The notes beneath the pieces are model-generated. The model saw only the letters and a program-made list of their open reading frames with translations. It made no database searches and had not been told where the DNA came from. This document shows, piece after piece, positions 14,808-34,887 of a stretch of DNA of 64,000 bases (the stretch's first letter is position 1; the number at the start of each line of letters is the position of its first letter). The position numbers and the translations under genes are program-made. The DNA is from Microthrixaceae bacterium (GTDB lineage Bacteria; Actinomycetota; Acidimicrobiia; Acidimicrobiales; Microtrichaceae). The stretch lies in contig JAMLGM010000003.1 in NCBI GenBank assembly GCA_023957975.1, forward strand, positions 12,024 to 76,023. Reading direction: 5' to 3'.

Positions 14808-16901
14808 ATGCGTCCGATTCGTTTGGCACGCACGGGAGCATTCGTGAAGGAAAACAAGCTCGGCCTCGGCGCAGCAGCCTTCCCGTTCGCCGTCATCGCC
14901 GTCGTGGCGCTCATGGTGCTGCCGATTCCGACGCATCTGCTCGACGTGTTGTTGGCCTTCAACCTGGGCCTCGCCATGTTGATGTTGTTGGCGTCGTTGA
15001 ACGTCAAGCGGGCGCTCGACTTCTCGGCGTTCCCATCGCTGCTGCTCATCGCCACCCTGTTCCGCCTCGGCCTGAACGTCAGCACCTCACGGCTGATCCT
15101 CTCGCACGGGGATGCAGGCGAGGTCATCGAAGCATTCGGCAACTTCGTCGTCGGTGGCTCACTCGTCGTCGGCCTCGTCGTGTTCTTCATCCTGGTGATC
15201 ATCCAGTTCGTCGTCATCACCAACGGTGCCACCCGCGTTGCCGAGGTCGCCGCCCGGTTCACCCTCGACGCGATGCCCGGCAAGCAGATGGCGATCGACG
15301 CCGACCTCAACGCCGGGGTCATCGACGACGACGAGGCGCGGCGACGGCGCGAGGATGTCGCCGGAGAGTCCGACTTCTACGGCGCGATGGACGGTGCGTC
15401 GAAGTTCGTCAAGGGCGACGCCATCGCCGCGGTGATCATCACCGCGGTCAACCTCATCGGCGGACTGCTGGTAGGTGTTCTCCAAAAGGGCATGGACGTC
15501 GGCGATGCGGTGAGCACCTACTCGTTGCTCACCGTCGGCGACGGCCTTGTGTCGCAGATCCCTGCACTGTTGGTGTCGATTTCCTCGGGTCTGATCATCA
15601 CCCGAGCAGCGAGCAGCGGCGACCTCGGTAGCGATGTGATGGCGCAGTTCGCCCGTCAGCATCAGGCGTTGCTGATCGGTGGCGTCTCCCTCATCGCCAT
15701 GGGCTTGGTGCCCGGGCTGCCGACCCTGCCGTTCTTCGTCGTCGGAGGGCTGCTGGTTGTTCTGTCTCGCAGGATGTCCGCCGCTGCCGATGCATCGGAC
15801 CGGGCGGCCGCCGAGGCTCCGGCCCACCTCGAAGAGGAGGCCGATCCGAACTCGCCGGCCGAACTGACCCGGGCACTGCGCGTTGAACCGATCGGGCTGG
15901 AGCTGTCGATCGACCTGGTCGACCTCGTCGATCCCGGGTCGAACGGCGACCTGTTGGACCGGGTGCAGGCGCTTCGTCGAAAGCTCGTCGAGGAACTGGG
16001 CATCGTCATTCCGCCGGTGAGGACGCGTGACAACGTCGAGCTCGACCTCGGGACCTACGTGATACGGATTCACGGGGTGGAAGTGGCGCGAGGGATCGCC
16101 CCTGCGGGCAAGCTTCTCGTGATCGCCGACGACCTCAGCGTGTTCCCCGGTATGGAAGTGCTCGAACCCGTCTTCGGGCTTCCATCGAAGTGGGTGGGGC
16201 CAGAGCTGCGGTCGATGGCCGAAGCGATGGGCGCCACCGTCATCGACCGTTCGTCGGTGATCACGACCCATCTGGCCGAGGTGGCTCGCGAGCACGCCCC
16301 CGAGCTGTTGAGCCGCCAAGATGTCAAGACCCTCGTCGACCTGGTCCGCTCGACCGACAGCGCCGTGGTCGAGGACCTGATGGCCGCGGGGGTGAGCCTC
16401 GCCGAGACCCAGCAGGTACTCATGAGTCTGCTCGCCGAACAGGTTCCGATCCGGGATCTGTCGCGGATCCTCGAGGTCATCAGCGAGCGTTCGCGTCTGA
16501 CCCGCGATACCGAGTTGTTGGTCGAGGCCGTGCGTCAATCGCTGGGCCCGGCGATCTGCGCGTCGAACGCCCGCAACGGTCACCTCGCGGTCATCACCCT
16601 CGACCCGCTCATCGAACAGGGGTTGCTGGGGTCGCTGCAACGCAACGAGACAGGGTCGTTCCTCGCCCTCGACCCCGACACCGCGTCGCGGGTCGGCCAA
16701 GCGATCATGAGCCAGCTTCGCAGTGCCGAACAACTCGGCCATGAACCGGTGCTCGTCTGTGCGCCGAGTCTACGGCCCGCCATGCGAAGCTTCCTCGCCC
16801 GGACCATTCCTCACATGCCGGTGTTGTCCTATGAAGAACTCGCCGATCACCTCACGATCGACGCGCTCGGCTCGGTGACCCTGGAGGCCAGCAATGCATG
16901 A
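14808..16901 (+). CDS. flhA: Flagellar export protein FlhA
   Basis: 697 aa. ATRVAEVAARFTLDAMPGKQMAIDADL and GAMDGASKFVKGDAIA motifs, followed by a large cytoplasmic C-domain. Confidence 0.95.
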   Translation: MRPIRLARTGAFVKENKLGLGAAAFPFAVIAVVALMVLPIPTHLLDVLLAFNLGLAMLMLLASLNVKRALDFSAFPSLLLIATLFRLGLNVSTSRLILSHGDAGEVIEAFGNFVVGGSLVVGLVVFFILVIIQFVVITNGATRVAEVAARFTLDAMPGKQMAIDADLNAGVIDDDEARRRREDVAGESDFYGAMDGASKFVKGDAIAAVIITAVNLIGGLLVGVLQKGMDVGDAVSTYSLLTVGDGLVSQIPALLVSISSGLIITRAASSGDLGSDVMAQFARQHQALLIGGVSLIAMGLVPGLPTLPFFVVGGLLVVLSRRMSAAADASDRAAAEAPAHLEEEADPNSPAELTRALRVEPIGLELSIDLVDLVDPGSNGDLLDRVQALRRKLVEELGIVIPPVRTRDNVELDLGTYVIRIHGVEVARGIAPAGKLLVIADDLSVFPGMEVLEPVFGLPSKWVGPELRSMAEAMGATVIDRSSVITTHLAEVAREHAPELLSRQDVKTLVDLVRSTDSAVVEDLMAAGVSLAETQQVLMSLLAEQVPIRDLSRILEVISERSRLTRDTELLVEAVRQSLGPAICASNARNGHLAVITLDPLIEQGLLGSLQRNETGSFLALDPDTASRVGQAIMSQLRSAEQLGHEPVLVCAPSLRPAMRSFLARTIPHMPVLSYEELADHLTIDALGSVTLEASNA

Positions 16902-18348
16902 CCAAGCGCTCCTCGATATCGAAGGAGTCGCCGACCCCGAGGTGTCGACCCGATATCTGCAGTACGAGGGGTTCCCACTCGAAGCGGTGCTCGCCCGGGT
17001 CACGGCCGAACACGGGCCGTCCGCCACGATCACCGCGGCCGAACGCGTGCGGCGCGGCGGCGTTCGTGGCTTCTTCGCCCGCGAGGTGTTCCAGGTGGTC
17101 GTCGCCGTGCCCGACGACGCGGAGATCGATCCCGAGGACGTCGACGGTGCGCTGGGTCTCGAACTCGGGGAATCGGCTGAGTTCGGCGACGATCTCGTCG
17201 AGGAGGACTCCGAGCCGATCGACCTCACCGTGGGAGCCTTCGCGACCGATCAGCGCGTCGGTGGTCCGCAGGACGACGAGCTGTGGGCGTTGCTCGCGGC
17301 GCCGTTGCCGCGGGACCCAGAGCCTCGCGCTGCGGATCGTCGAGGGCAGCCGGGCTCCACCGTCGTCCCCCCGCCGTATCCGGGTGCGCCCGGCACCCCA
17401 ACCGACCCACACCTGATCCGACTCGCGCCGCCGCCGCCTCGCTGGCCGTCGACCCACCAGGAACCGCTGGTCGACGCCGTGGTTGAACCGGTGGTCGAGG
17501 CGGGGGTGGCCTCGCTGCCCTTCGTCGTCGACGTCGTCGAATCCGAAGCGATCCTCGCCGAACTGGTGCAACCGCTGAAGTCGCTCGGACCGATCGCCTC
17601 GACGACGCTCGTCGCCGGCCCGGCCCGCCGGTCGGGAGTCGAGTCGATCGCCGAACCCCGCGCCGAGGTCGTACGCGCCGAAGCGGTGCGTCATGCCAAA
17701 GCAGCGTTTCGGGCGAGTGAACCGTCACGCCCAGTCGTTTCGTCCCGTGCCGGCGGGCCCGAGGTGGACCTGTCGGCCATGCTGGGAGCCCTCGAGACCT
17801 CACTCGTAGCGGTTCCCGCACCGCCTGCGGCCGGGGTCATAGCGCTCGTCGGCGACCTCGCGGAAATCATCACCGCTGCGCAGAGCCTGGCGCGGCATCT
17901 GGGGGTGGCGGCCCACGATGTGCACGTTGTCGCTCGCGGTGCGTCGGCTTCGCCGGTCCTCGGCGTGGTCCGGCCACGCTCCGACGCGGCACGAAACCCG
18001 CAGAACCGGACCCTCGTCGCCATCGAACTGGCGGCCGGCCGCGACGGGCACGAGTGGACGCGCTCGGCGTTGGCAGCCCTCGATCCTCGTCAGATTCGAT
18101 TCGTCGCCGACGCTCGTCGGTATCTTTCCCATCAGCATTTCAGCGTTGCCGCGGTGGGAGGGGTCGACGTGGTCGACCTGAGTGGGGTTGGGGCGCTTGC
18201 CGAACCCGCCGATGCTCTGGCACTTGGTGTGCCGGTCGCGACCATCGACGGGCGCGGGGCAACCCCCGAAATGTGGGCGGCAGTGTTGCTGGCCCATCGC
18301 TGTTCACAACGACAAGGCACCACCTGGAGTGGTGCGGAGGATGAGTAG
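16894..18348 (+). CDS. FlhF-like protein with a degenerate (P-loop-less) SRP-GTPase-like C-domain
   Basis: 8-nt overlap with flhA. The N-terminus EAVLARVTAEHGPSATITAAERVRRGGVRGFFAREVFQVVVAV resembles the FlhF N-domain. The C-terminal segments VIALVGDLAEIITAAQSLA, LVAIELAAGRD and VDLSGVG sit where the G1, G3 and TKLD motifs would be, but the GxxGxGKT residues are missing. Confidence 0.4.
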   Translation: MHDQALLDIEGVADPEVSTRYLQYEGFPLEAVLARVTAEHGPSATITAAERVRRGGVRGFFAREVFQVVVAVPDDAEIDPEDVDGALGLELGESAEFGDDLVEEDSEPIDLTVGAFATDQRVGGPQDDELWALLAAPLPRDPEPRAADRRGQPGSTVVPPPYPGAPGTPTDPHLIRLAPPPPRWPSTHQEPLVDAVVEPVVEAGVASLPFVVDVVESEAILAELVQPLKSLGPIASTTLVAGPARRSGVESIAEPRAEVVRAEAVRHAKAAFRASEPSRPVVSSRAGGPEVDLSAMLGALETSLVAVPAPPAAGVIALVGDLAEIITAAQSLARHLGVAAHDVHVVARGASASPVLGVVRPRSDAARNPQNRTLVAIELAAGRDGHEWTRSALAALDPRQIRFVADARRYLSHQHFSVAAVGGVDVVDLSGVGALAEPADALALGVPVATIDGRGATPEMWAAVLLAHRCSQRQGTTWSGAEDE

Positions 18349-19027: not shown

Positions 19028-20161
19028 TTATCCCGGTGTCGCTGGCGGAGGTGTGGCGACCGTCGCCTGGCGAACCGACAGTGCGATGCGGCGCTTGTCG
19101 AGATCGACCGACAGCACTTTGACGACGATGGCCTCGCCGGGGGTGACCAGCTCGTCGGGTCGGTACCCCGGGAGTTCGGACAGCTCGGACAGGTGCACGA
19201 GGCCGACAATCTCGCCGTCGTTGAGTTGGGCGAACACCCCATAGTCGACGAAGCGGGTGACGGTGGCGTGGTGTACCGAGCCGATCTCGAGCGAGGCATA
19301 CGGGTCGGGTTGGCGTCGTCGCAGCGACAACCCGATGCGGCGCTTCGATTTCTGCACCTCGATGACCTCGGTCTCGATCTCATCGCCGACGCTGAGGTAC
19401 TGGGACACCTTTGAGACGCGACCCCATGACACTTCGCTGCGATGCAGAAGGGCGCGGACGCCGTCGATGTCGATGTATGCGCCGTAGTCGAGGAGCTGGG
19501 TGACGCGTCCGGTGACGACATCGCCGACCTTCACCCGCGAAAACACATCGCGTTCGACCTGGCGTCGTTGGCGGCGCAGGTGGTCGCGTCGCGAGACCAC
19601 GACCCGGTCGAGTGCACGGTCGAGCTCAGTGACGATCACCGTGACCTCGGTCCCGACGAGCTTTTCGGGCTCCATTGCCTCGGGATCCTGGGGGCCGTGC
19701 TCGCCGATCATCGAGCTGGGAAGGAACGCCCGAAGCCCGAGGTCGACGAGAAGTCCGCCCTTGATGGTGCGTTCGACAGTGCCCGTGAGCGGCTCGCCCG
19801 ACGCCTTGGCAGCCTCAACGCGTTCCCAGTGGCGCAACTTGCGCGCCCACGAATTGCTCAGCGCGACGCGTTCTCGCGGATCTTCGCGGGCGAGGACTGC
19901 GGCGTCGATCGTCGAACCCGCCGTGGGGACGGGTCGGTCGCGATACTCGCTGCGGGCGATGACGCCGATGCGGCCATCGGCCAACTTCACCTCGATCTCC
20001 GCGTCGTGGACGGCGGTGACGATCACCTCGATCACCCGGCCGACTGTTGAGCCCGGTGCAGGGGTTCGCACACCGGCGGTCGGCGGCGCCGGCGGGTGCT
20101 GCGGTGTTGACCACGACGAGGAGGGCGAAGTCGGCACGTAGTCAGTTTGCCTGAGAGCCAC
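19028..20161 (-). CDS. S1 RNA-binding domain protein (four S1-like repeats)
   Basis: Repeated S1 motifs such as [35 protein letters not shown] and [13 protein letters not shown]. Start uncertain (GTG 20161 or an internal start). Confidence 0.75.
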
Positions 20162-20321
20162 CGAAAATGCGCCGGATTCTCTCTACGGGTACGCGAGCAC
20201 GTACCGACTGCGGAATTTCTTTCGTCTTGGCTCAAGCGGGTGGGATTGGTGCCGAACGGGTTGGGGTGCCCGTGTTGGCGCCCACTACCGAGGCGCTGTC
20301 AACGTCACTGCAGGTGCTCCG

Positions 20322-23300
20322 TTGGAGTTGTCGAGCGCGGGCGGCTACGAGCAGGTCGTGCGTGAGGATCATCCGTCGTCGTATTGGCGTTTGGGCGACG
20401 GCACGACCGCGGACGCGGCCGATGCCTCGACTGCGGGAACCTCGGTGGGTAAGAACCGGGTCGGTCAGTCGACGCTGACGGTTTCGGGGGCGATTGCCGG
20501 TGACCCGAATGGGGCGACGCAGTTCAACGCGTCGGCGTTCGATGTGGCGTCGGGGTTGGTGTCTGGGTCGTCGAGTATCGAGTTGTGGTTCAAGACCGCG
20601 AATCAGGGCGGCCTGATCATGGCGATGAAACCCGATGCTTCGCAGTTCGTGCCGTTGGCCTATGTCGGAACCGACAACAAGTTGCATGCCGGGTTCTGGC
20701 CGATGCCCCAGGTCGTCTCACCGGCAACGGTGACCGACAACCAGTGGCATCACCTCGTGATCTCCTCGGCGTCGACGTCGGTCACGGTGTTCCTCGACGC
20801 CGTGCCGATCGGAATGCAACACGGCGCGCCGAACATGTTGGAGATGACCGCAACCTATTTCGGTACGTCGTTGGAGACGGGGTGGCCCTACAGTCCTGGT
20901 GGTTGGCGCCCGTTGAACGGCGCGTTGGACGAGATCGCGATCTATCCGGGGGCTCTGAGTGGCGTGCAGGTCAAGACGCACTTCGACGCAGCCCGGATCG
21001 GTGTTGTCGACGCCCAGCCGCACCGGATCCGAGTGGACTTCCAAGACAAGGCGGGTACGGCCGCGTTGTCGCTTCGCCAGGGCACACCTGGCGCGACTGC
21101 GGCGTTGGCGAGTTCTCAGTTGAGCCCGCGTTACAACCTGGTGACCAGGACCATTGACCCCGACGGCAAGGTCACAGCGTCGCAGTATGGGGTACCCGAA
21201 CTCGGGATGAAGACCGCCGACATCGTTGATCCGGCAGGGCTGAACCTACGCACCGAATACACCTACGAAGGCGCGTCGTCGGCGAACAAGGCGTTTCGCC
21301 GTCAGCTCACTCGAAAGCTCCCCGCCCTGGTCGGGACCTCGGTGACGCCGACGACCTACAGCTATTACTCCCAAGGCACGAACCCTGCCACCGCGGACAA
21401 TCCGTGCACGGTGCCGGTGGAGGCGATTCCTCAAGGTGGCGCTCAATGGAAGAGCGTTGGTGTCGACCCCGACGGTGCGGGTTCTCAAACCGGCGAGGTG
21501 ATCGAGTCGGTGTATTTCGGCGATGGCCTGGTCGCGGCGACGCGGCGGAGCGCGAACGGCACGACCGATCCGTGGACCTGCTACACCTATGACGGTCGCG
21601 GTCGTCCACTCACGGTGTCGTATCCGGCCTACGGTGGTGCGGTGGCACGTACTGTGACCTACAGCTATCGGGTCGATCCCGACGGTGCCGGGCCGTTGAG
21701 TTCAAGTGTGGCGTCGGTATCGGTGTCGGACGACTCGACAGGTTCGGGTATCTCGTCTCCGACGGTAACGACGACGGTCGACTGGTTGGGTCGCGTCGTT
21801 CGCTATCAGGACGCGCTCGGGGTGGTGACCACCACGACCTATGACCAGGCGAACCGGCCAACAACGGTCACGGCATCGAACGGATACGGGACGGTCGGCT
21901 ACACCTATGACGCTGCGGGGCGCCTGGCAACCCAGACACTGGGAGGCAACGTCATCGCGCAGCCGACCTACAACGGTTCGAGTGGGATGATGACCTCGGT
22001 GTCGTACCCGTCGGGGGCGAACAAGGCCGGCAACGGAACCAGCGGGGCGTTCGGTTTCGATTCGCGAGGTCGCCCCAATGCGATGACCTGGACTGGGCCG
22101 TCGTCGACACTGTTGACCTCATCGGCGGTGACTCGCAGCGCTGGTGGGCGCATCGTGGACCAAACGATCGATGGTGTCGATCCGACGCCGGGCACGGACG
22201 CGTTCACCTATGACGCGGCGGGCCGCCTCACGATCGCCGGGCCGTCGGCGCCAAGCGGTGGTGGGTCGTCTCCGGGGCTGATTCCGCCGTCGGGGACGCG
22301 GGTGAAGGTGCAGCATTCCGGTCAGTGTTTGGACATTCGCAATATCAGTTCGAACAACGGTGAGTATGTCGACCAGTACGGTTGCTATACGTCGGGTGCG
22401 TTGAACCAGGTGTTCGATTTCCTCGATCTCGACGGCACCTGGTTCACGATGAAACCGAAGCATTCAGGGATGTGCATCGGGGTCCCGAACAACACCGCAG
22501 GTTCGTTTGTCCAACAGCAGACATGCAGCGGAGCGACCACCCAGAAGTGGAAGGCGGTGGCGGTCGGTAGCGGCTACCAGTTGGTGAATCAGTCGTCGAA
22601 TCTGTGTGTGGAGGTTCCGGGGTCGTCGATGGCGTATCAGACGGCGACGAAGCAGAACACGTGTGGTACGTCGACGGACACGAACCAGATTTGGCAGTTC
22701 GTCGACCCGGCCACACACGCGACGGTCGCATTCCCGAGCACCGGTGGTGGGTCGTCTCCGGGGCTGATTCCGCCGTCGGGGACGCGGGTGAAGGTGCAGC
22801 ATTCCGGTCAGTGTTTGGACATTCGTAATATCAGTTCGAACAACGGTGAGTATGTCGACCAGTACGGTTGTTTTACGTCGGGCGCGTTGAACCAGGTGTT
22901 CGACTTCGTGTCGTCGGATGGCACTTGGTTCACGATGAAACCGAAGCATTCGGGGATGTGCATCGGCGTGCCGAACAACACCGCAGGTTCGTTTGTGCAA
23001 CAGCAGACGTGTAGTAGTGGTGCCGCGCAGCTGTGGAAGGCGGTGGGGGTCGGTAGCGGCTACCAGTTGGTGAATCAGTCGTCGAATTTGTGTGTGGAGG
23101 TTCCGGGGTCCTCGATGGCGTATCAGACGGCGACGAAGCAGAACACGTGTGGTACGTCGACGGACACGAACCAGATTTGGCAGTTCGTCGACCCGGCCAC
23201 ACACGCGACGGTCGCATTCCCGAGCACCGGTGGTGGGAGCGATGCTCAGGGCTACGACTTCACCTCCAACCAGTCGGGTTCGTGTGCGGTGCCGGCGTCG

Positions 23301-24455
23301 AACTCGGGCCGGAACGGGAACCGGGTGAACCATGTGGTTGGTTCGTTGTCGTTCGGGTCGTGTTATGACTGGGCGGACAAGCTGACGTCGACCACTGAGC
23401 CCGGGTTTACTGGGACGATCGGATACGACTCGCATGGCAACGCGACCACGATCGCCGGCGAAACCCATGGCTATGACGCGACGGATCGTCACCTTGGCAC
23501 GGTGAAGGGTTCGACGACGGTGACGTATCGGCGTGATCCGTTGGATCGAATCGTTGTGCGTACCGAGGCGGTTTCGGGTGGTGCGACTACGACGACGCGT
23601 TATGGGTACGTGGCGGGTGGCGATAGCGGTCAGATGACGTTGTCGTCATCGAACACGTTGATTGAACGCACGATGGTGTTGCCCGGTGGGGTGATCTACA
23701 CGAGCCGTGCGAGCGGTGATGTGTGGTCGTATCCGAACATTCACGGTGATGTCGCGGCGACTGCGACCAGTGCGGGTGTCAGAACCGGTGTGACGGTCGC
23801 GTACGACGCGTTCGGGAATGTCGCGGCTGGTGTGTTGGCGGACAATAGTGACGGGAACTTCGATTACGGCTGGCATGGTCAGGCTCAGCGTCCTGTGGAG
23901 CACGGTGTCGGGTTGGTGTCGGTGATCGAGATGGGTGCGCGCCAGTACATCCCTGCTTTGGGCCGATTTATCGAGAAGGACCCTGTTGAGGGTGGTGTCG
24001 ACAACGACTACACCTACGTCAACGACCCCATCAACATGACCGACCTCACCGGCACCTTCGGTGTACCGAAGTGGGCGAAGAAGATGGTGAAGAAGTACCG
24101 CCATCAGATAATAAACGTTGCTACGGGAGTCGCTGCCGCAGTTGCGGTTGGAGCATGTGCTGGGCTCGTAGTATGCGGTCTGGCGTTGGCGGGAGTCGCT
24201 GCAGCTGGCACAGTCGCGCACTTGAGTTCGGATAGGTTGGCAAGAGATCCTGCCAGGAACTATACGGTACGCCGCGCTTTGGGCGAATCCGTGGTGTCCA
24301 CCCTAACAGGCGGTACGTGCAGGGCCGTTCTGGGGAATGGATGCGGACTCGGAGCTATTAGGAATGGAATCGCCAGAAACTGGCAGGCAGTTGTTGTTGG
24401 GCTTGGTGGTGCGGCATCGGCATGGATGTTGAAATATCGAGGTAAGAGTAGGTGA
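20322..24455 (+). CDS. Rhs/YD-repeat polymorphic toxin: LamG-like N-domain, YD repeats, two inserted ricin-type lectin domains, Rhs core, Gly/Ala-zipper hydrophobic C-terminal tip
   Basis: [16 protein letters not shown]...[12 protein letters not shown] is LamG/concanavalin-like. YD motifs: [35 protein letters not shown]. QxW lectin motifs: TQKWKAV, NQIWQFV. Core end [40 protein letters not shown] (to about 24053). The tip has [26 protein letters not shown] and [15 protein letters not shown] start. No ATG or GTG between the in-frame TAG at 20139 and 20322. Confidence 0.85.
22257..23237 (+). repeat. Tandem 486-bp duplication (two ricin-lectin-domain coding units) inside the rhs gene
   Basis: ggtggtgggtcgtctccggggctgattccgccgtcgggg... 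starts at 22257 and again at 22743 (offset 486 nt = 162 codons). Scattered substitutions, clustered around the DFLDLDG / DFVSSDG and SGATTQKW / SSGAAQLW segments. Confidence 0.9.
22997..24090 (+). repeat. Direct repeat copy 1 (rhs core 3' end) shared with the orphan cassette
   Basis: gcaacagcagacgtgtagtagtggtgccgcgcag... through ...gtaccgaagtgggcgaagaaga matches 25003-26096 at a constant offset of 2006 nt. I saw about a dozen mismatches by eye. Confidence 0.9.
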
Positions 24456-24985
24456 ACGAAGACCATGTAGCGGTCGTCCGATCTGGTGATGATACGATTC
24501 TTCGGTACCCGCGTTCCGGACTTGACGTTAGGATTAGTTCCGACAGGTCCAATCTGTGCTCGGACAAGTCCACTCTTAAAATGAAATCACCGTTCTTCAC
24601 TAGCGACCGAAATCTTGGAATGCGTTCGGTCGATTTCAATTGGAATCTCGATGGTGACGAGGTCGGCAAACGCATCATTGATTTCTGGCCTCGCCCGAAA
24701 AGCCGATTCCTCCAGTTTGGCGCAGAAATATCTACCCAGTTCGCATCAGTAGTGTTTGTCCGGGGCGCTCGGCGATTGGTTAAAATCGGTGCATCCAATC
24801 AGATTTGGGAGATAGACGCCCTCACGCCACCGGAGGCGCTTTGGGTAACTGCATGCCTGATTTGTGAGAATGATAACCTCCACAAACTGCCGTTGCTGCC
24901 ACTGGTAGATATCTTGAATCCGAGGCCTGGTCAGAGGGCACGTATCCCACGTTCCCCTTGGCGATATCAATGGCAATGGGGGTGA
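24452..24985 (+). CDS. Candidate cognate immunity protein of the main Rhs tip (AT-rich, no family recognised)
   Basis: 177-aa ORF whose GTG overlaps the rhs stop (GTGA). About 47% G+C in a 60-nt line I counted. No TM segment. The last 20-30 codons may be read-through. Confidence 0.35.
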
Positions 24986-24991
24986 GTCCAA

Positions 24992-26503
24992 GTGGCGACA
25001 GGGCAACAGCAGACGTGTAGTAGTGGTGCCGCGCAGCTGTGGAAGGCGGTGGGGGTCGGTAGCGGCTACCAGTTGGTGAATCAGTCGTCGAATTTGTGTG
25101 TGGAGGTTCCGGGGTCCTCGATGGCGTATCAGACGGCGACGAAGCAGAACACGTGTGGTACGTCGACGGACACGAACCAGATTTGGCAGTTCGTCGACCC
25201 GGCCACACACGCGACGGTCGCATTCCCGAGCACCGGTGGTGGGAGCGATGCTCAGGGCTACGACTTCACCTCCAACCAGTCGGGTTCGTGTGCGGTGTCG
25301 GCGTCGAGCTCGGGCCGGAACGGGAACCGGGTGAACCATGTGGTTGGTTCGTTGTCGTTCGGGTCGTGTTATGACTGGGCGGACAAGCTGACGTCGACGA
25401 CTGAGCCCGGGTTTACTGGGACGATCGGTTACGACTCGCATGGCAACGCGACCACGATCGCCGGCGAAACCCATGGCTATGACGCGACGGATCGTCACCT
25501 TGGCATGGTGAAGGGTTCGACGACGGTGACGTATCGGCGTGATCCGTTGGATCGAATCGTTGTGCGTACCGAGGCGGTTTCGGGTGGTGCGACTACGACG
25601 ACGCGTTATGGGTACGTGGCGGGTGGCGATAGCGGTCAGATGACGTTGTCGTCATCGAACACGTTGATTGAACGCACGATGGTGTTGCCCGGTGGGGTGA
25701 TCTACACGAGCCGTGCGAGCGGTGATGTGTGGTCGTATCCGAACATTCACGGTGATGTCGCGGCGACTGCGACCAGTGCGGGTGTCAGAACCGGTGTGAC
25801 GGTCGCGTACGACGCGTTCGGGAATGTCGCGGCTGGTGTGTTGGCGGACAATAGCGACGGGAACTTCGATTACGGCTGGCATGGTCAGGCTCAGCGTCCT
25901 GTGGAGCACGGTGTCGGGTTGGTGTCGGTGATCGAGATGGGTGCCCGCCAGTACATTCCTGCTCTGGGCCGATTTATCGAGAAGGACCCTGTTGAGGGCG
26001 GTGTCGACAACGACTACACCTACGTCAACGACCCCATCAACATGACCGACCTCACCGGCACCATCGGTGTACCGAAGTGGGCGAAGAAGATTGTAAAGAA
26101 ATCTGTCAAACTGGCGCGGGCAGCAAGGAATGCTCCCGCGTCGGTCGTTGGATTCGCTGTCGCAAAACGTGGTGGAGGATCGTGCTCTGTAGATCGCGCT
26201 GAGCTAACCATCATATGCACTGGGGTGAAGCGGGGTGCGTTCAATCCACGCGACGCGATCACCTATGGAAACGTAATCATTTCTAAGGAGACCTTGAACA
26301 GCGGCCAGATTCGTCACGAGATGGCACATGTGAACCAGCAGGCATGGATGGGAGACTCCTTTCTCCAGGCATATGGCATAGCAGAAGCGGCTGGATGGGT
26401 ATACTCCAAGGTATCTCGCAGCAAGAAATCAGCTAGCTGTTTCAACGTCTTCGAGCGCAACGCCGATTTTAACAGAGACAACTACTCTTCGTGTCGGAAC
26501 TAA
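24992..26503 (+). CDS. Orphan Rhs C-terminal cassette (partial ricin domain + Rhs core end + HExxH metallopeptidase-like toxin tip)
   Basis: From 25003 it duplicates main-gene residues [16 protein letters not shown]...[10 protein letters not shown], then diverges into a new 147-aa tip containing [11 protein letters not shown]. There is no LamG or N-terminal region, so the listed GTG 24992 is probably not a real independent start. Confidence 0.7.
25003..26096 (+). repeat. Direct repeat copy 2 (orphan cassette)
   Basis: See copy 1. Identity ends a few codons after the shared G-V-P-K-W-A-K-K linker. Confidence 0.9.
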
Positions 26504-27042
26504 TGAAATTGGCATTCGGTCAGGTTCGGGCGCGTCGTTCTCGAATTTATCTGTTGAGCGTTGTACTCGTCTCCAGTTCCTGCGTATGGGGTACTGAAGG
26601 GCATCAATCTATTCCGTTCGTTGTGTCGGGCGATGCGATGAACTACGTCCTGCAGGTACCAATCTGTTCAGGCGACTGGCTGGCAAGCATTGAAGTCGTA
26701 TTGCCAGGACAGACAATAATCCAAGAGGCAAGCGGCAAGCTTGAGGATAATCGGGCCCGATTTCAAGGTATCATGGATGTTTCTATCAACCTCGATGAAG
26801 TCGAGAACGTACCCATCATATCGTCGTTCGATTTAATCAAGAGTTCGAAGAATTACCTGTCCAAAGAGGATAATGGGACTGTGATATTTGTTACCAACGA
26901 GGGGTATGGAGCATCAATTGAACTTGAGGACGTTGCTACTCGCCCGCAACTTTGGTTGCGCAATGATAGCGGAGACTACGATCGGACCGAAGTCGATCAG
27001 GACATACCTAGTGTGATCAGTTCCTGGTGCAGTTCCGACTGA
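26503..27042 (+). CDS. Candidate immunity protein for the HExxH tip, exported or membrane-anchored (signal peptide, possible lipoprotein)
   Basis: TAATG overlap with the orphan stop. [30 protein letters not shown] is a basic n-region plus hydrophobic core plus Cys. About 40% G+C in a line I counted. Confidence 0.5.
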   Translation: MKLAFGQVRARRSRIYLLSVVLVSSSCVWGTEGHQSIPFVVSGDAMNYVLQVPICSGDWLASIEVVLPGQTIIQEASGKLEDNRARFQGIMDVSINLDEVENVPIISSFDLIKSSKNYLSKEDNGTVIFVTNEGYGASIELEDVATRPQLWLRNDSGDYDRTEVDQDIPSVISSWCSSD

Positions 27043-27054
27043 TGCGATCAGGAC

Positions 27055-27324
27055 ATGGTATCGGTGTCGGACGACTCTTCCCGAGGGGGTATCGTGCAAG
27101 TTAGAACGTTGTCCAAGGGCGAGAAGATCGGCTTTGCCATCTTGCTGGCCTCGATAGCTTCTCTTTGGATCGTTGGGAATATCTTCGTTCGGGAGGCTGG
27201 TGGAGAGATCGCTCCTGTCTCGATTGGGCCAACTATGTTGGGTTGCGTCGTGGGGCTTTCCATCGTCCGACTCCAGAAACGAGGCAGGAAGTCTGAGCTT
27301 GGCAATGGCCAGAATAATGAGTAA
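27055..27324 (+). CDS. Small two-TM membrane protein (orphan-immunity candidate)
   Basis: 89 aa. TM segments IGFAILLASIASLWIVGNIF and VSIGPTMLGCVVGLSIV. Starts 12 nt after the preceding stop. C-terminal tail RKSELGNGQNNE is encoded by the repeat module. Confidence 0.45.
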   Translation: MVSVSDDSSRGGIVQVRTLSKGEKIGFAILLASIASLWIVGNIFVREAGGEIAPVSIGPTMLGCVVGLSIVRLQKRGRKSELGNGQNNE

Positions 27325-27370
27325 TCCGAGTGGCTTCGCCCCAGTCGGTGGGTTCCACCACTACCGTGCC
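27288..27370 (+). repeat. About 83-bp 3' module, copy 1
   Basis: gaagtctgagcttggcaatggccagaataatgagtaatccgagtgg... recurs at 27921 (gaagtctgaacttggcaatgaccagaatattgagtaatccgaatgg...), with weaker similarity up to ccaccact(a/g)ccgtg. Confidence 0.75.
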
Positions 27371-27464
27371 CACATCGTGCGCTTCCGGCTGGAAGCACCT
27401 GCCTTTGCAGGCGGTACGAGTGGTGGATCAAAGTCTGCTGGCTGTATGATCGGACGGTAGCGCG

Positions 27465-27929
27465 GTGGAGCGTACTGCTAACGGTGCTCACTTTCGAATG
27501 CGGAACAGGGTGGCATCTTCGATTGGTTCCTTGCTATGGCTCATCCTGGCCGGTGTATTAATGTCTGGACTCGCGATGGGCACGTCTGCCCTGACGATCG
27601 GGTCAGCGTCAATAGGCGTGGTCTTGATCGTCCTAGCTGTCCGTTCAGCTCGCGCTGGATTGACGGTTCGGAGCAACGGAACCATTGTGATGCGTGGCCT
27701 CTTTCGCACCCGAAGTATTCAGAACGACGTACCCATCGACGCCACGGTTATTGCTGAGTTCGGCGGACTGCGGGAGTGGCTTGAAGTCAGCGCTGATGGT
27801 CGATCTGCCAAGGTTGAGGCCCCTCGGTTCATGGGTCGATTCGGGCCCGACCTGGAGGCTGCGGCGACGCTGCTATCCGCCAGCAGGCAAATCCCAAGCG
27901 ATCGACTGCTGGCGAGGAAAGAAGTCTGA
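27465..27929 (+). CDS. Two-TM membrane protein with a soluble C-terminal domain (possibly PH-like)
   Basis: 154 aa. TM segments SIGSLLWLILAGVLMSGLAM and IGSASIGVVLIVLAV. GTG start. The stop falls at the first bases of repeat copy 2. Confidence 0.45.
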   Translation: MERTANGAHFRMRNRVASSIGSLLWLILAGVLMSGLAMGTSALTIGSASIGVVLIVLAVRSARAGLTVRSNGTIVMRGLFRTRSIQNDVPIDATVIAEFGGLREWLEVSADGRSAKVEAPRFMGRFGPDLEAAATLLSASRQIPSDRLLARKEV

Positions 27930-28003
27930 ACTTGGCAATGACCAGAATATTGAGTAATCCGAATGGGCCTGCCACGGTCGCTAGGCTCCACCACTGCCGT
28001 GTC
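27921..28003 (+). repeat. About 83-bp 3' module, copy 2
   Basis: See copy 1. Here the KKSELGNDQNIE-encoding frame is out of frame with the upstream ORF. Confidence 0.75.
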
Positions 28004-28031
28004 TTCACTACTCTAGGAGAGCCGCAGTCCT

Positions 28032-28253
28032 ATGCCTAGCGGTCAAGTATCATTCGGTGTCGTGGTGGTGCTTGGAGTTATACTCGCCGTCGCTAGTGTG
28101 ATTTCTCACATACGAATGGTTCAGGCGGATTCTCCGGGCCGCCTGTTTCGCAGGATACTCGCGGGATTCGTTGACACAGGTGAGGGATTTGCAAACCTGG
28201 TGAGGATATTGATCGGATTAGGCCTGTTGGCGGGCTACGTGTTCAGCAGATAG
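28032..28253 (+). CDS. Small two-TM membrane protein (orphan-immunity candidate)
   Basis: 73 aa. TM segments VSFGVVVVLGVILAVASVISHI and LVRILIGLGLLAGYVF. AT-rich. Confidence 0.4.
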   Translation: MPSGQVSFGVVVVLGVILAVASVISHIRMVQADSPGRLFRRILAGFVDTGEGFANLVRILIGLGLLAGYVFSR

Positions 28254-28386
28254 CTAGATAGGACAGGTAGTCAGGCGACCAATCATATTAACGCGGTGGG
28301 CGTGCGCTGGAGGCAACCAGATCCAGATCGATATTAGTGGATATCGGGCGACTCCATTAATCAAATTCGGCATCGAAGGGCTGGGG

Positions 28387-29229
28387 TTAGTCGAAGACGA
28401 CCGTGCGGTTTGCGTAGGTCAGGATGCGGTGCTCGATGTGGAGTCGCACGGCATCGGCGAGTACTACGACCTCGAGGTCGCCACCCATGCGGATGAGTCG
28501 CTCCGGGTCGTCGCGGTGGCTCACCGGGGTGACGTCTTGGCGGATGATTGGGCCTTGGTCGAGTTCCGCCGTGGCGTAGTGGGCGGTCGCTCCGATGATC
28601 TTCACTCCGCGGTCGTACGCCTGGTGATAGGGCTTTGCCCCGATGAATGCGGGCAGGAACGAGTGGTGGATGTTGATGATGCGGCGCGGATATCGGTCGA
28701 TGATCTCGGGTGGCAGGATCTGCATGTAGCGGGCGAGCACCACGAGGTCGATGTCATGTTCCTCCAGCGCTTGGAGCACCGCGCGCTGTTGGGCCGACTT
28801 GGCGTCTGGGTCGACCGGGAGGTGGAGGAACGGGACCCCGAACTTCTCGGTGATCTCCCGGAAATCGGGGTGATTGGAGATCACCACCGGGATGTCGACG
28901 TTGAGGAGGCCGAGATGATGTCGCGATAACAGGTCGAGCAGGCAGTGACCTTCCTTCGACACCAAGAGCGCCACTCGTTGGCGGTCGGACTCCTCGGCGA
29001 GGGTCCACGACATGCCGAGGCGTTGCGCAAGAAGTGAGAACTCCGTACGGAACGCGTCGTGATCGGCGCCGGGTTCGAGCGTGAACTCGATGCGTTGTAG
29101 GAATAGATCGTGGCGTTGGTCGGCATGCTGGTCGGCGTGGACGATGTTGCCGCCGTGGTCCTGGATGAACCCGCTGGTCGCGGCCACGAGCCCCGGTCCG
29201 TCGGGGCAGGAGAGAAGAAGGATCGTCAT
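28387..29229 (-). CDS. purU: Formyltetrahydrofolate deformylase PurU
   Basis: N-terminal ACT-like LLLSCPDGPGLVAATSGFI, then the formyltransferase core IINIHHSFLPAFIGAKPYHQAYDRGVKIIGATAHY. Confidence 0.9.
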   Translation of the reverse strand: MTILLLSCPDGPGLVAATSGFIQDHGGNIVHADQHADQRHDLFLQRIEFTLEPGADHDAFRTEFSLLAQRLGMSWTLAEESDRQRVALLVSKEGHCLLDLLSRHHLGLLNVDIPVVISNHPDFREITEKFGVPFLHLPVDPDAKSAQQRAVLQALEEHDIDLVVLARYMQILPPEIIDRYPRRIINIHHSFLPAFIGAKPYHQAYDRGVKIIGATAHYATAELDQGPIIRQDVTPVSHRDDPERLIRMGGDLEVVVLADAVRLHIEHRILTYANRTVVFD

Positions 29230-29651: not shown

Positions 29652-29738
29652 CGGGGGCTCCTTCGGTGAGAATGGGTGGAACAGGGTCAGTCTGTTGACG
29701 GTACCGAACTTCCGAGTCAGCGGGTCGCATCCGAGGTG

Positions 29739-29759
29739 TGACCGGAACGGTTCCGGTCA
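29739..29759. promoter_or_regulatory. Perfect 21-bp palindrome upstream of the helicase gene
   Basis: TGACCGGAAC-G-GTTCCGGTCA, 72 nt upstream of ATG 29831, in the divergent intergenic region. Confidence 0.3.
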
Positions 29760-29830
29760 TGTCGGTGGAGGCTGGCAGACTATTGGGTCCCCTTGCCCCG
29801 ACTCCCGTTCACGGACGCTCACCCACCCCC

Positions 29831-31471
29831 ATGGCGACATCGATCAGGCTTCGGCCCTGGCAAAAAGCTGCGCTCGAAAAGTTGCTCGCGAAGGACGCGG
29901 ACAACTTCCTCGCCGTCGCCACCCCTGGTGCCGGCAAGACGACCTTCGCGCTCACCGTCGCCGCGCAGTACCTGTCCTCGGGGCTTTGCCAGGGGTTGTT
30001 CGTGGTCGCCCCGACCCAGCATCTCAAGGTCCAGTGGGCCGAGGCGGCGCATCGCATCGGCTTACACCTCGACGACGACTGGGCCGCAGCGGACGGCGAA
30101 TTGCCTTCCGACATGCACGGAATCGTGACCACCTATCAGCAGGTGGCGACATCGGGCGCGGTGCTGCGCAAGTTGACCCCCGGCTCGTTCGTCATCCTCG
30201 ACGAGGTACACCACGCCGGCGACGACAAGTCGTGGGGCGAGAGCGTGCTGAATGCGTTCGGCCCGGCGCGCAAGCGACTGTCGTTGTCGGGGACTCCGTT
30301 TCGATCCGATAGTTCGGCCATCCCGTTCGTCGAGTACCACATGGACGAGGCGTTACCCGACTTCGAGTACGGGTATGGCGATGCGCTCAGCGACGGGCGC
30401 GTCGTGCGCCCGGTGTACTTTCCGGCCTACGGCGGGCACATGGAATGGGTCGCCCCCGATGGAAGCGAGATGTCGGCTGGCTTCGACGATGCGCTCGACC
30501 ACCAGAGATCCAACCAGCGACTTCGGGTGGCGCTGTCGCTTGAGGGGCAGTGGCTCACGAAGGTGTTGACCGAAGCCCACGTACAACTGCAGAACATCCG
30601 TCGTACTCATGTGGATGCCGCGGGTCTGGTCATCGCCATGGACCAGGACCATGCCAACGGCATCGCGCGACTCATGAAGTCGCGTTTCGGCATCACCCCG
30701 ACCATCGCGGTGTCCGACGACCCGACCGCCTCGGCGAAGATCGCCAGGTTCGCGGCGTCGAACGATCCGTGGATCATCGCGGTGCGCATGGTGTCCGAAG
30801 GGGTCGACATCCCAAGGTTGCGCGTCGGGGTGTATGCGACAAACACCACCACCGAGTTGTTCTTCCGACAGGTTGTCGGCCGTTTCGTCCGCTGGACGCG
30901 CGGGGTGAAGAACCAGCGAGCATTCCTGTTCCTCCCCGACGATCCACGCCTGCGCCGTTACGCCGCCGAGATCGCCGCGCAGCGGCGTCATTCACTCAAG
31001 AAGCGCCGCGGTGACGACGACACCGACGGCACCGAGTTCGACGACCTCGGTGACGCCGAGCGCGAGGAACAGGGAGGCGAGGAGCAGATGTCGCTGTTCG
31101 CCGTCATCTCGGCGGTCGCCGAGGAGGCGGAGCTCGCCCCGTCGGTGTTCAGTACAGATCACGGAGACGACTGGGACGACGACGCGGAGGTCGAGCTCGA
31201 CGAGTCGCTGGAGGTGCGCCTCGCGGTACCGCCACCGAGAGGTGCGAGGGGTGCAGCGCCGACGACGAAGACGCGCAAGCATCTGAAAAAGGACCTGCGA
31301 GACGCCAACGCCGAGTTGGTGCGCGAACTCGTGCGCTTTTCCAAGCTCGATCATCGGCAGGTGAACGCGGAACTCAACCGGCTCGCCGGCATTCGCAAGG
31401 TCACCGAGGCGACCGTGGAGCAACTCCAGACCCGCCTCGACCGTGGCGAACGGTGGCTCAAGAAGCTGTAA
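29831..31471 (+). CDS. Superfamily-2 DEAD/DEAH-box helicase (DEVH motif)
   Basis: Start at ATG 29831 (MATSIRLRPWQKAALEKL). Walker A ATPGAGKT, motif II ILDEVHHAG, SGTPFR, and an acidic/basic C-terminal tail. Confidence 0.8.
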   Translation: MATSIRLRPWQKAALEKLLAKDADNFLAVATPGAGKTTFALTVAAQYLSSGLCQGLFVVAPTQHLKVQWAEAAHRIGLHLDDDWAAADGELPSDMHGIVTTYQQVATSGAVLRKLTPGSFVILDEVHHAGDDKSWGESVLNAFGPARKRLSLSGTPFRSDSSAIPFVEYHMDEALPDFEYGYGDALSDGRVVRPVYFPAYGGHMEWVAPDGSEMSAGFDDALDHQRSNQRLRVALSLEGQWLTKVLTEAHVQLQNIRRTHVDAAGLVIAMDQDHANGIARLMKSRFGITPTIAVSDDPTASAKIARFAASNDPWIIAVRMVSEGVDIPRLRVGVYATNTTTELFFRQVVGRFVRWTRGVKNQRAFLFLPDDPRLRRYAAEIAAQRRHSLKKRRGDDDTDGTEFDDLGDAEREEQGGEEQMSLFAVISAVAEEAELAPSVFSTDHGDDWDDDAEVELDESLEVRLAVPPPRGARGAAPTTKTRKHLKKDLRDANAELVRELVRFSKLDHRQVNAELNRLAGIRKVTEATVEQLQTRLDRGERWLKKL

Positions 31472-33276: not shown

Positions 33277-33300
33277 CTCAGGGACGGAATCCAGGCGACC

Positions 33301-33332
33301 CATTTAGAAAGTGACTTGTCACTTTCTAAATG
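33301..33332. promoter_or_regulatory. AT-rich 32-bp palindrome (likely TetR operator and promoter)
   Basis: CATTTAGAAAGTGAC-TT-GTCACTTTCTAAATG has perfect 15-bp arms. It overlaps the first candidate ATG (33330) of the TetR gene. Confidence 0.6.
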
Positions 33333-33953
33333 GGGGCGTACGGTGAGGCCATGGTCTCCGCCTCCACTGGAACTCGACGCACCCAGGCCGAACGTCGCGA
33401 GGCGACGCGCTCCGCGATCCTCAACGCCTCGCTCGAACAGCTCCTCGACGGAGGACTCTCGGGCTTCACCACAACCGAGGTCTGTCGGCGTGCCGGGGTC
33501 AGCCAGGGGGCGTTGTTCAAGCACTTCGACTCAAAGTCCGCGCTGCTCGCCGCAGTCATCGAACACCTCTTTGAGGCGCTGCGTGACGACTACGAGGTGG
33601 CGTTCGTCGAACTCGGCGACGCCGCCCAGCCGGCGCACGGCGTCGACCTGTTGTGGGCGCGCATGTTCGACCCCCGCCTTGGCGCCGGATTCGAGCTCTA
33701 CACCGCAGCGCGCAGCGATGCCGATCTGCGCGCCGCACTCGAGCCGGTCGTGTCGTCCCACTGCCAGCGGATCCACGAGCTCGCCGCCGGCCTACTCCCC
33801 GAGATCGACCCCCAGCGCCTCGCCCCGCTCGTCGACTTGGCGATCCTGTCGATCCAGGGGCTGGTGCTGAACCAGATGGCCGCTCCGGACCCCGGTCAGG
33901 TGGAGCGACTTCGCAACATGTTGGACGAGCTCGTCGAGTTCGTCGTTTCGTAA
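33330..33953 (+). CDS. TetR family transcriptional regulator
   Basis: HTH region RREATRSAILNASLEQLLDGGLSGFTTTEVCRRAGVSQGALFKHFDSK. ATG 33351 is an alternative start. Confidence 0.85.
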   Translation: MGAYGEAMVSASTGTRRTQAERREATRSAILNASLEQLLDGGLSGFTTTEVCRRAGVSQGALFKHFDSKSALLAAVIEHLFEALRDDYEVAFVELGDAAQPAHGVDLLWARMFDPRLGAGFELYTAARSDADLRAALEPVVSSHCQRIHELAAGLLPEIDPQRLAPLVDLAILSIQGLVLNQMAAPDPGQVERLRNMLDELVEFVVS

Positions 33954-33972: not shown

Positions 33973-34887
33973 GTGTTGGAGGAACTGATGAACCCGGCGG
34001 TGCTGGCGATTCCGCTGTACTTCGCACTGATGTGGTGGGAGGTGCGTGCGTTGAAACGCCAGCGACGTGAGGGCCGCGACGTGTTGGGATACGACCGACG
34101 AGACGCCTCGGCGAGCATCCGCCTCGGGGTGGTGTCACTCGTGAGCGTCGGTGCGTTGAACGTGGTGTCGCTGCTGTTGTCGCAGTGGCTGTGGCAGTTC
34201 CGCCTCATCGACCTCGGCACGGGTGTTGCCGCGTGGGTTGTCGCCATGATCGGGTGGGACTTCGCCTACTACTGGCTGCATCGCTTTGAGCATCAGTCGC
34301 GACTGTTATGGGCGGCGCACGTCAATCATCACTCCAGCGAGTACTACAACCTGTCGACCGCGCTGCGTCAGGCGCTGCTGCCGGTTGCGGCGATCGTGTT
34401 CTTCCCGCCGCTCGCCCTCATCGGGGTTCGCCCGTGGATCATCGCGGTGTCGGGCGGGTTCAACCTCGTCTACCAGTACTGGATCCATACCGAGGCGATC
34501 GACAAGCTGCCGCGTTGGTTCGAGTTCGTGTTCAACACGCCGTCGCATCATCGAGTCCACCACGGCAGCCAACGCCAGTACCTCGACCGTAACCACGGCG
34601 GCATCCTCATCATCTGGGACCGCATGTTCGGTACCTTCCAAGCCGAGGGCGAACGGGTCCGTTACGGACTGACCAAGAACATCCACTCGTACTCGTTGTG
34701 GACGATCTTCAGCCACGAACTCGTTGCGATCTGGCACGACGTCGGTTCGACGCGGTCGTGGCGTGAGCGGTGGAACTACACCTTTGCCGGTCCGGGGTGG
34801 AAGCCACCGAGACTAGGGGGCGCTCAGTCGAGCGCGAACGCCTCGGCAATGCCGGCCGCTCCGAGCTCCCAGGTCGGTGGCCGGTAG
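33973..34887 (+). CDS. Fatty acid hydroxylase / sterol desaturase superfamily membrane protein
   Basis: Histidine boxes HRFEH, HVNHH and HHRVHH with several TM segments. Confidence 0.8.
   Translation: MLEELMNPAVLAIPLYFALMWWEVRALKRQRREGRDVLGYDRRDASASIRLGVVSLVSVGALNVVSLLLSQWLWQFRLIDLGTGVAAWVVAMIGWDFAYYWLHRFEHQSRLLWAAHVNHHSSEYYNLSTALRQALLPVAAIVFFPPLALIGVRPWIIAVSGGFNLVYQYWIHTEAIDKLPRWFEFVFNTPSHHRVHHGSQRQYLDRNHGGILIIWDRMFGTFQAEGERVRYGLTKNIHSYSLWTIFSHELVAIWHDVGSTRSWRERWNYTFAGPGWKPPRLGGAQSSANASAMPAAPSSQVGGR

Follow-up and report, generated by a model that had tools for sequence, protein, structure and literature searches.

The present analysis concerns a stretch of 64,000 nucleotides from a Microthrixaceae bacterium (NCBI GenBank assembly GCA_023957975.1, contig JAMLGM010000003.1, positions 12,024 to 76,023 of the forward strand), called the window below, and within it an Rhs locus at 20322-28253, which was described earlier from the letters of the DNA as an Rhs/YD polymorphic-toxin locus (the original prediction). 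Microthrixaceae are a family within Acidimicrobiia, phylum Actinomycetota; the closest protein to the window Rhs (97% identity) was found in a Microthrixaceae metagenome-assembled genome (MAG; P0001), and one related contig comes from an activated-sludge metagenome. The locus is built as an array of the main Rhs gene ending in a variable C-terminal tip (tip 1), the open reading frame (ORF) ORF177, an orphan Rhs cassette ending in a different tip (tip 2), the gene imm2 and three small ORFs in the order ORF89, ORF154 and ORF73. Every ORF coordinate of the original prediction was reproduced by the ORF list, and the features are the following (TM, transmembrane):

20322..24455, + strand: main Rhs gene, 1377 amino acids, no signal peptide
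20559-20972 (residues 80-217), + strand: Laminin_G_3 domain, E 2e-13
about 21069-22255, + strand: YD region 1, YD/RHS repeats
22256-23237 (about residues 646-972), + strand: two ricin lectin units, RicinB_lectin_2 E 5e-44
23238-24056, + strand: YD region 2 with the Rhs core
23802-24053 (residues 1161-1244), + strand: Rhs_assc_core TIGR03696, 46.0 bits against a cut-off of 32.5
24057..24452, + strand: tip 1, 132 amino acids, after the DLTG motif
24452..24985, + strand: ORF177, 177 amino acids, no TM-like segment
24992..26503, + strand: orphan Rhs cassette, ORF of 503 amino acids
26063..26500, + strand: tip 2, 146 amino acids, predicted zincin-like, HExxHxxQ...E, four conserved Cys
26503..27042, + strand: imm2, 179 amino acids from the ATG in TAATG, 183 amino acids from 26491
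27055..27324, + strand: ORF89, 89 amino acids, two TM segments and a charged tail
27280..27368 and 27913..28001, + strand: copies of direct repeat D3, 89 nt, 82% identical
27465..27929, + strand: ORF154, 154 amino acids, two TM segments plus a C-terminal soluble domain (about 85 amino acids), absent from the related locus L001
28032..28253, + strand: ORF73, 73 amino acids, two TM segments

The membership of the main protein in the Rhs/YD family, shell fold included, is supported by profile searches and structure modelling. In the hidden Markov model (HMM) searches the RHS_repeat family PF05593 (E 3.4e-10, 40.5 bits against a cut-off of 22), YD_repeat_2x TIGR01643 (25.8 bits against 15.8) and the core family TIGR03696 all exceeded their cut-offs, and the Pfam and NCBIfam hits follow the predicted order of LamG, YD repeats, two ricin lectins, YD repeats, Rhs core and tip. 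The core possesses both catalytic Asp positions (DPVEG...DLTG), 21 residues apart. The ricin units are a 486-bp tandem duplication with 94% identity, and their copy number depends on the strain, being two in the window and in L001 and one in another related locus, L002; ricin units inside the YD region are rare, since they occur in 2 of 82 relatives, both near-identical, and in the Microthrixaceae Rhs L009. The shell was modelled by AlphaFold2 for residues 231-1377 from an alignment of 25 homologues, where the YD segments (residues about 270-640 and 990-1230) are predicted as beta-hairpin repeats with a predicted local distance difference test score (pLDDT) of 70-95, while the model is poor for the ricin units and for the tip, with an overall pLDDT of 57.8, because the alignment is without depth there. 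In the Foldseek comparison of this model with the PDB the top 42 matches are Rhs, TcC, teneurin or SGS1 shells (E 4e-21 to 2e-9), led by type VI secretion system (T6SS) Rhs cores (8qja, 8cp6 Tse5, 7q97, 8h8b), teneurins and TcC at E 4e-21 to 1e-12, and the highest TM-scores (0.53-0.63, target-normalised) belong to TcC chains. The family hits and these shell matches to Rhs, TcC and teneurin thus bear out the Rhs/YD polymorphic-toxin reading of the original prediction.

The orphan cassette was said to repeat about 1.09 kb of the core and to carry a different, HExxH-containing tip, and in the DNA self-comparison positions 22997-24094 indeed recur at 25003-26100 over 1098 bp with 98.8% identity (13 mismatches, 0 gaps). 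The repeat extends from within the second ricin unit, via YD region 2 and the core, to 13 codons past DLTG, and the orphan also matches TIGR03696 (residues 273-356, 47.6 bits against 32.5). The start of the orphan is a GTG at 24992 preceded by GGGGGTGAG (upstream 24968-24991), public assemblies annotate it as a gene of 503 amino acids, and judging by these signals a truncated protein with tip 2 might be made from the orphan's own start. A promoter and terminator scan of 20000-28500 found no sigma-70-like site, the consensus used being ill-suited to a high-GC actinobacterium. In the metagenome contig L017 the orphan is longer by about one ricin unit, with 665 amino acids versus 503.

The strongly similar relatives L002 and L001 represent natural variants of this arrangement. 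L002 is a short scaffold, in which only the purU side of the locus is visible; it is 99.7% identical to the window as far as 22752 and resumes at 25039, so that 22752-25038 is gone, and it is 100% identical over 26503-28386, from imm2 to the end of the array. Its main gene consequently has one ricin unit and tip 2 at the end and encodes 1217 amino acids, tip 1 and ORF177 being absent. In the window the segments 22547-22751 (first ricin unit) and 25039-25243 (the partial ricin unit of the orphan) are 98.5% identical, and on comparison of the sequences L002 has exactly the structure expected for a product of recombination between them. The event may have gone in either direction, by insertion of the tip 1 cassette into an L002-like ancestor or by collapse of a window-like ancestor. 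The window-type arrangement of tip 1, ORF177 and orphan was found in at least 8 metagenome contigs, some of which come from the same WANG18-named sample series as the L002 type, and according to this the two alleles may coexist.

The L001 locus sits between the S1 gene and purU, at the same site as in the window, and is 99% identical to the window as far as 24065, after which an unrelated third tip of 133 amino acids follows. Downstream of tip 3 there are two small ORFs (59 and 61 amino acids) and an eroded orphan, in which the first 277 bp are missing and about 180 bp are deleted internally. The L001 assembly contains split genes, namely flhA in 2 ORFs (L001 4524-6580) and the helicase gene in 3 (L001 18268-19904), both of which are intact in the window (14808-16901 and 29738-31471, respectively); for this reason the single-base frameshifts of the orphan there may be sequencing errors, while the larger deletions are not. 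In total three unrelated tips stand after the same core motif, with upstream sequences 97-99% identical. The orphan had been regarded as swap-ready, and this idea is supported by natural variants rather than by observation in the laboratory, L002 being to all appearance a recombinant of main gene and orphan, and L001 carrying a third tip after the same core motif. In Salmonella the displacement of Rhs tips and the activation of an orphan by recombination have been demonstrated experimentally (PMC3967940).

With tip 2 a word-indexed search retrieved only the L001 fragment; an exhaustive HMMER search gave 89 cluster representatives at E<1e-3, where the matching domain is always C-terminal in host proteins of 96-2503 amino acids, 13 of them with RHS repeats and others with PA14, CBM96 or DUF6531, and the genomes identified to date belong to Actinomycetota. 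In an alignment of 44 sequences the residues H85, E86, H89, E131, C41, C52, G69, A134 and Y141 are invariant, and N23, G38, Q92, G97, Y104, C126, N128, G139 and the last Cys are near-invariant. Only 2 of 88 members reach PF13699 at E<=1e-3, and of the 16 Pfam families that the 88 members match at the same threshold none is a Tox-MPTase family; Pfam has models for Tox-MPTase2-5 and is not known to have one for Tox-MPTase1. NCBIfam contains no model for the domain. The motif HExxHxxQ...E is the signature given for the PVC-metallopeptidase, versions of which are also regarded as toxins (Zhang et al. 2012, PMC3482391). In the confident AlphaFold2 model of tip 2 (pLDDT 93.5, predicted TM-score 0.85) there are two helices and four strands, with the HExxH helix and another long helix after the strands and short helices around E131; a search of BFVD with this model gave as best matches phage proteins without a name (E 1.6e-4, TM 0.72), and a phage protein of the DUF4157 type came up at E 0.45 and TM 0.57. 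By its sequence features tip 2 is thus assigned to a toxin family without a name, predicted to be zincin-like, whose signature resembles that of DUF4157; it is not assigned to PF13699. It was claimed previously that neither tip could be placed, which holds for tip 1, but tip 2 is now placed in this unnamed HExxHxxQ...E family.

The gene that follows tip 2 was expected to encode a signal-peptide protein overlapping the orphan stop, and the stop and the imm2 start do overlap in TAATG at 26501-26505. The imm2 protein has a signal peptide with an Arg-rich N-region, a hydrophobic core and a lipobox-like VSSSC, followed by a Cys 24 residues further on and a Cys near the C-terminus. Nine other members of the tip 2 family (L005-L012 and L014, MAGs of Acidimicrobiia, Microthrixaceae, Actinomycetes, Bifidobacteriaceae and Actinomycetales) were compared in their gene context, and in all nine the next gene overlaps or follows the toxin gene and encodes a protein of 146-171 amino acids with a hydrophobic N-terminus, an invariant internal Cys, a likewise invariant Trp in an LWxI-like motif and an invariant Cys at the C-terminus. 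A lipobox is present in 8 of the 9 partners, the protein of L006 having a hydrophobic N-terminus without it, and the partner family is not covered by Pfam. The likeness of imm2 to these partners is architectural, with the two Cys in register in the comparison with the partner profile, and a PDB sequence search with imm2 gave nothing significant. The exported partners point to an action of tip 2 outside the cytoplasm, and the four conserved Cys in 146 residues suggest disulfides and hence extracytoplasmic action, with which the gene context agrees; imm2 is considered a candidate extracytoplasmic immunity protein for tip 2.

Two members of the tip 2 family stand in other contexts. In L009 (2963-3370, a Microthrixaceae MAG) a ricin Rhs with the tip 2 domain and a lipoprotein partner adjoin an excisionase-like helix-turn-helix gene, a context that differs from the window and is possibly mobile. 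In L013 (2623-3498, Streptomyces boninensis chromosome) the domain lies in a protein of 291 amino acids without Rhs part, which has a TM/signal region at its N-terminus and a TM segment at its C-terminus. A lipoprotein partner is not evident there, so that polymorphic toxins are not the only place where the tip 2 domain is used.

Tip 1 contains by hydropathy a 40-residue continuous hydrophobic Gly/Ala-zipper hairpin (residues 1262-1302), then a 50-residue polar stretch and a C-terminal hydrophobic segment, with helices predicted at low confidence and no catalytic motif; it had no match in Pfam and none among PDB sequences at E<=10, Tse5 (8cp6) included. Due to this composition and the absence of a catalytic motif the best guess is that tip 1 is a membrane-inserting, depolarising peptide, by analogy with the Rhs effector Tse5, which has a pore-forming tip and an immunity protein with two TM segments (PMC9637101). 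A second analogy in favour of this guess is a more distant Rhs, L004 (50% identical), in which a Gly-zipper tip is followed by an ORF of 132 amino acids that apparently has several TM segments when inspected by eye. The AT-rich ORF that was noted as overlapping the Rhs stop is ORF177, the overlap being GTGA at 24452-24455, with a Shine-Dalgarno-like GAGG motif 9 nt upstream. ORF177 travels with tip 1 in the window-type contigs (at least 8) and is a candidate tip 1 immunity gene, and a scan of viral contigs with it found no match. The two-TM ORFs further downstream are present also in L002, which is without tip 1. Tip 3 of L001 ends in a hydrophobic segment as well and is unplaced, a PDB sequence search giving nothing significant. 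A kinship of tip 1 and tip 3 through the string AIRNG and the hydrophobic tail was considered and rejected as chance (BLASTP E 2.2).

The end of the array is formed by the three small ORFs described previously as two-TM proteins, and by hydropathy ORF89, ORF154 and ORF73 have two TM-like segments each. They are mutually unrelated, and their exact copies are annotated as genes in 12-49 public contigs. ORF73 is open in both the window and L001 at 92% identity, versus 76-85% in the flanking intergenic DNA; the numbers of synonymous and non-synonymous changes in the small ORFs are low. The 89-nt repeat D3 brackets the ORF154 module, and precisely what lies between its copies is missing from L001; the 3' end of ORF89 falls within the first copy, and the second encodes the same peptide ending (KSELGN.QN.E) in a frame that differs from that of ORF154. 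A further trace is an exact match of 21 nt between 21716-21736 in the Rhs YD region (peptide VSVSDDS) and 27057-27077 in the first codons of ORF89, which may be a scar of an earlier rearrangement or recombination; when Rhs remnants were sought in 27043-28386, only a 12-residue match at the ORF89 start was found. The most economical reading of this make-up is that ORF89, ORF154 and ORF73 are orphan immunity genes, and the immunity array of the original prediction is plausible.

On the left of the locus there are fliG, fliF, fliD, flagellin, flgK, flgL, fliR, flhB, flhA, fliW and csrA and, at the flank of the Rhs locus, an S1-domain gene on the opposite strand, and on the right purU is followed by a SnoaL-like gene, a helicase gene and housekeeping genes, so that the order FliW-CsrA-S1, Rhs, purU agrees with the placement between the flagellar/CsrA cluster and purU given before. 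The GC content falls from about 0.65 to 0.48-0.56 across 24250-28250, where the tips and small ORFs lie, and GC at third codon positions (GC3) is 0.52-0.62 in the small ORFs versus 0.80-0.82 in neighbouring genes, which suggests a foreign origin of the tips and small ORFs. The designation of the locus as an accessory block is right as far as its 3' content varies between strains, but the locus itself is present in all close relatives that were sampled, at one and the same site of the chromosome. An exact-sequence look-up of the window Rhs and purU proteins gave no match; assemblies break at the repeats.

Taken together these data make it quite probable that the locus is an Rhs-family polymorphic toxin locus, most likely serving competition between close relatives. 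In the proposed mechanism the Rhs core would cut the tip free inside the shell, and the lectins and LamG would bind glycans on the target surface. All three tips are supposed to act on the cell envelope, so that no import into the cytoplasm would be needed: tip 1, and probably also tip 3 of L001, would be small hydrophobic peptides, which on insertion into the membrane would dissipate its potential, while tip 2 would be a zinc metallopeptidase stabilised by two disulfides with an extracytoplasmic target. Tip 2 would be neutralised by the exported (lipo)protein of the next gene, and ORF177 would confer immunity to tip 1. The three two-TM ORFs would be immunity genes left from earlier tip replacements and would protect against neighbours that still have those tips. 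The Rhs protein itself has 150 kDa and is leaderless.

Several observations weigh against this interpretation. The Rhs N-terminus has no signal peptide, no hydrophobic segment and no in-frame start upstream of 20322, and among the large ORFs examined in the window there is neither PAAR/VgrG nor LXG/WXG nor TcA/TcB, which leaves delivery unexplained and agrees with the earlier statement that no partner of a T6SS, a type VII secretion system or a Tc toxin is nearby. The YD part, with about 650 residues in total, has roughly the size of a TcC half-shell and is below a complete T6SS Rhs shell. For tip 2 the Pfam match to PF13699 (eCIS_core/DUF4157) is sub-threshold (12.2 bits against 22, E 0.21), the Foldseek comparison with the PDB gave nothing significant, the best being the HExxH protease PprI at E 0.54, and the family profile matched no PDB sequence. 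The comparison of imm2 with the profile of the nine partners gave an hhalign E of 0.34, by which homology is not established. ORF177 is without a TM segment, in which it differs from the known immunity proteins against membrane toxins, and has no homologue beyond near-identical copies and nothing significant among PDB sequences. The S1-domain neighbour used as query in the genome-contig scan found no relative, and the comparison strains, all of them at least 95% identical, cover close relatives.

In other Actinomycetota many of the larger PA14-Rhs relatives do have a Sec-type signal peptide at the start. If the leaderless Rhs were exported by a route new for Rhs, the candidates would be the upstream flagellar type III gate (flhA, flhB, fliR, fliW, csrA) or the holin-like two-TM proteins, and the locus would be equipped with envelope-only toxins, including a disulfide-bonded zinc metallopeptidase family with exported, mostly lipoprotein, immunity; this stronger proposal seems unlikely, and its consequence, if it is true, is that envelope-only toxins need no import step. 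A related explanation takes ORF89, ORF154 and ORF73 for holin-like release factors, which would free the leaderless Rhs from a lysing or permeabilised subpopulation, instead of immunity genes. Lysis cassettes release Tc toxins by the type 10 secretion route, the Rhs has neither signal peptide nor secretion partner, ORF89 and ORF73 are like class II holins in size and have two TM segments, with a charged tail in ORF89, and ORF154 weakly matches the PHROGs holin family phrog_3428 (E 0.048). However, this match is not significant, ORF89 and ORF73 match nothing in PHROGs, no endolysin or spanin is nearby, and the three ORFs are unrelated to each other, one of them being dispensable in L001; their modular and variable make-up better suits an immunity array, and the release function is considered rather improbable.

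The target and the activity of the system were also considered in other ways. Toxins against eukaryotic glycans commonly contain lectin domains of the ricin and LamG types, one region has a weak CDtoxinA match (E 2e-5), and the best shell TM-scores are those of insecticidal TcC proteins, all of which would fit a weapon against eukaryotic grazers such as sludge protozoa, or a lectin adhesin, in place of an antibacterial role. On the other hand, each tip is followed by a small, tightly coupled gene, with an exported partner in 9 of 9 other tip 2 family members examined, and self-protection genes imply that the producer itself is sensitive and thus that the target is bacterial; the turnover of tips among near-identical strains is a signature of within-species competition, so that a grazer target or adhesin role is assessed as very unlikely. 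No more credible is the explanation of the locus as an inactive remnant, a shortened descendant of a PA14-Rhs of about 2000 amino acids that lost its signal peptide and part of the shell and was kept as a recombination hotspot. It agrees with the short shell and with the relatives of 1800-2400 amino acids, many of which have the Sec signal peptides and PA14 that are both absent here; against it, the frame of 1377 codons is open in the window and in L001 with a host-like GC3 of 0.74, the version of 1217 amino acids is open in L002, and tips with partner genes were repeatedly gained at the exact core boundary, which is hard to explain without selection for function.

The logic of such systems has been known since 2009-2014, and the locus is not categorically new. 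It has the defining features of Rhs orphan-cassette loci, the immunity genes being candidates, except a recognisable export module. The WapA protein of Bacillus subtilis is a Gram-positive YD-repeat protein that acts independently of T6SS, its C-terminal toxin being polymorphic and the immunity gene lying next to it; it is equipped with a Sec signal peptide as well as cell-wall-binding domains, and the tRNases that form its tips need cytoplasmic entry. The window locus resembles it as a Gram-positive YD-repeat system with a polymorphic tip, an adjacent candidate immunity gene and no T6SS in view, and differs in that the Rhs lacks a leader, contains LamG together with internal ricin lectins and carries tips that look envelope-directed. 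The rhs-main/rhs-orphan locus of Salmonella Typhimurium LT2 (Koskiniemi et al. 2014, PMC3967940) combines, as is proposed for the window locus, a full-length rhs, an immunity gene and a 5'-truncated orphan that shares the core and carries a different tip with its own immunity gene, and recombination there fuses the orphan tip to the main gene, so that the window would correspond to the state before and L002 to the state after. That system is Gram-negative, with T6SS export and cytoplasmic toxins, whereas here it is an actinomycetotal locus with no export system in view and tips predicted to act on the envelope; and the swap was seen in the laboratory in Salmonella, while here it is deduced from natural variants.

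As regards the single components, tip 1 is similar to Pseudomonas aeruginosa Tse5 (RhsP1) as a small hydrophobic tip without enzymatic motif on an Rhs shell; the Tse5 tip inserts into membranes and depolarises cells, as is predicted for tip 1, and its immunity protein Tsi5 has two TM segments, like ORF89 and ORF73 (PMC9637101). Tse5 differs by a PAAR-like N-terminus for T6SS, and ORF177 beside tip 1 is soluble. For tip 2 a comparable pair that has been tested is VgrG2b-Cter and PA0261, where the HExxH toxin is periplasmic and its immunity protein requires a signal peptide and the Dsb system and has lipoprotein homologues in Enterobacteriaceae (PMC6899460); tip 2 is likewise predicted to be an HExxH toxin acting outside the cytoplasm with an exported immunity partner, but VgrG2b is absent among the 50 best PDB fold matches of tip 2 listed, none of which is significant. 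The PVC-metallopeptidase family (DUF4157, PF13699; PMC3482391) shares the HExxHxxQ...E signature and differs in that the tip 2 family is sub-threshold in its model and has four conserved Cys of its own. The TcB-TcC cocoon (PDB 4igl, 4o9x) is also a YD-repeat shell with an aspartyl-protease core, while among the large ORFs examined in the window there is no TcB/TcA partner, the shell of the Rhs has lectins inserted in it, and the tips are followed by genes of immunity type.

What distinguishes the locus from the known examples is the leaderless LamG N-terminus, a short shell with lectins inserted in it, a set of three undescribed tips, each of envelope-directed appearance, and one tip family with a conserved exported partner that is mostly a lipoprotein. 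It offers an unusually clean natural series of tip replacement outside Proteobacteria, with three tip states at one site in near-identical strains. For tip 2 an undescribed toxin family is defined, and its conserved exported partner predicts a compartment of action that can be tested. Microthrixaceae include filamentous bulking organisms of wastewater plants, and strain-level weapons in this family could bear on sludge population dynamics. The missing export signal is the one real puzzle of the system.

Some minor observations were made elsewhere in the window. Between flhA and fliW, at 16894-18348, there is an ORF of 484 amino acids with a very high GC content (0.70-0.72); for its counterpart in L001 no Pfam hit is recorded, and the ORF could encode a divergent regulator of the flagellum, FlhF-like or other. 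Self-comparison revealed two near-perfect intergenic palindromes (33299-33334 and 44531-44571) and a 30-nt direct repeat (52644-52673 and 52692-52721), the copies of which are 48 nt apart as given by the self-comparison. Finally, an ORF of 143 amino acids at 34306-34737 on the minus strand has a GC3 of 0.58 among genes with GC3 >0.8 and may represent another small insertion of foreign DNA in the window.

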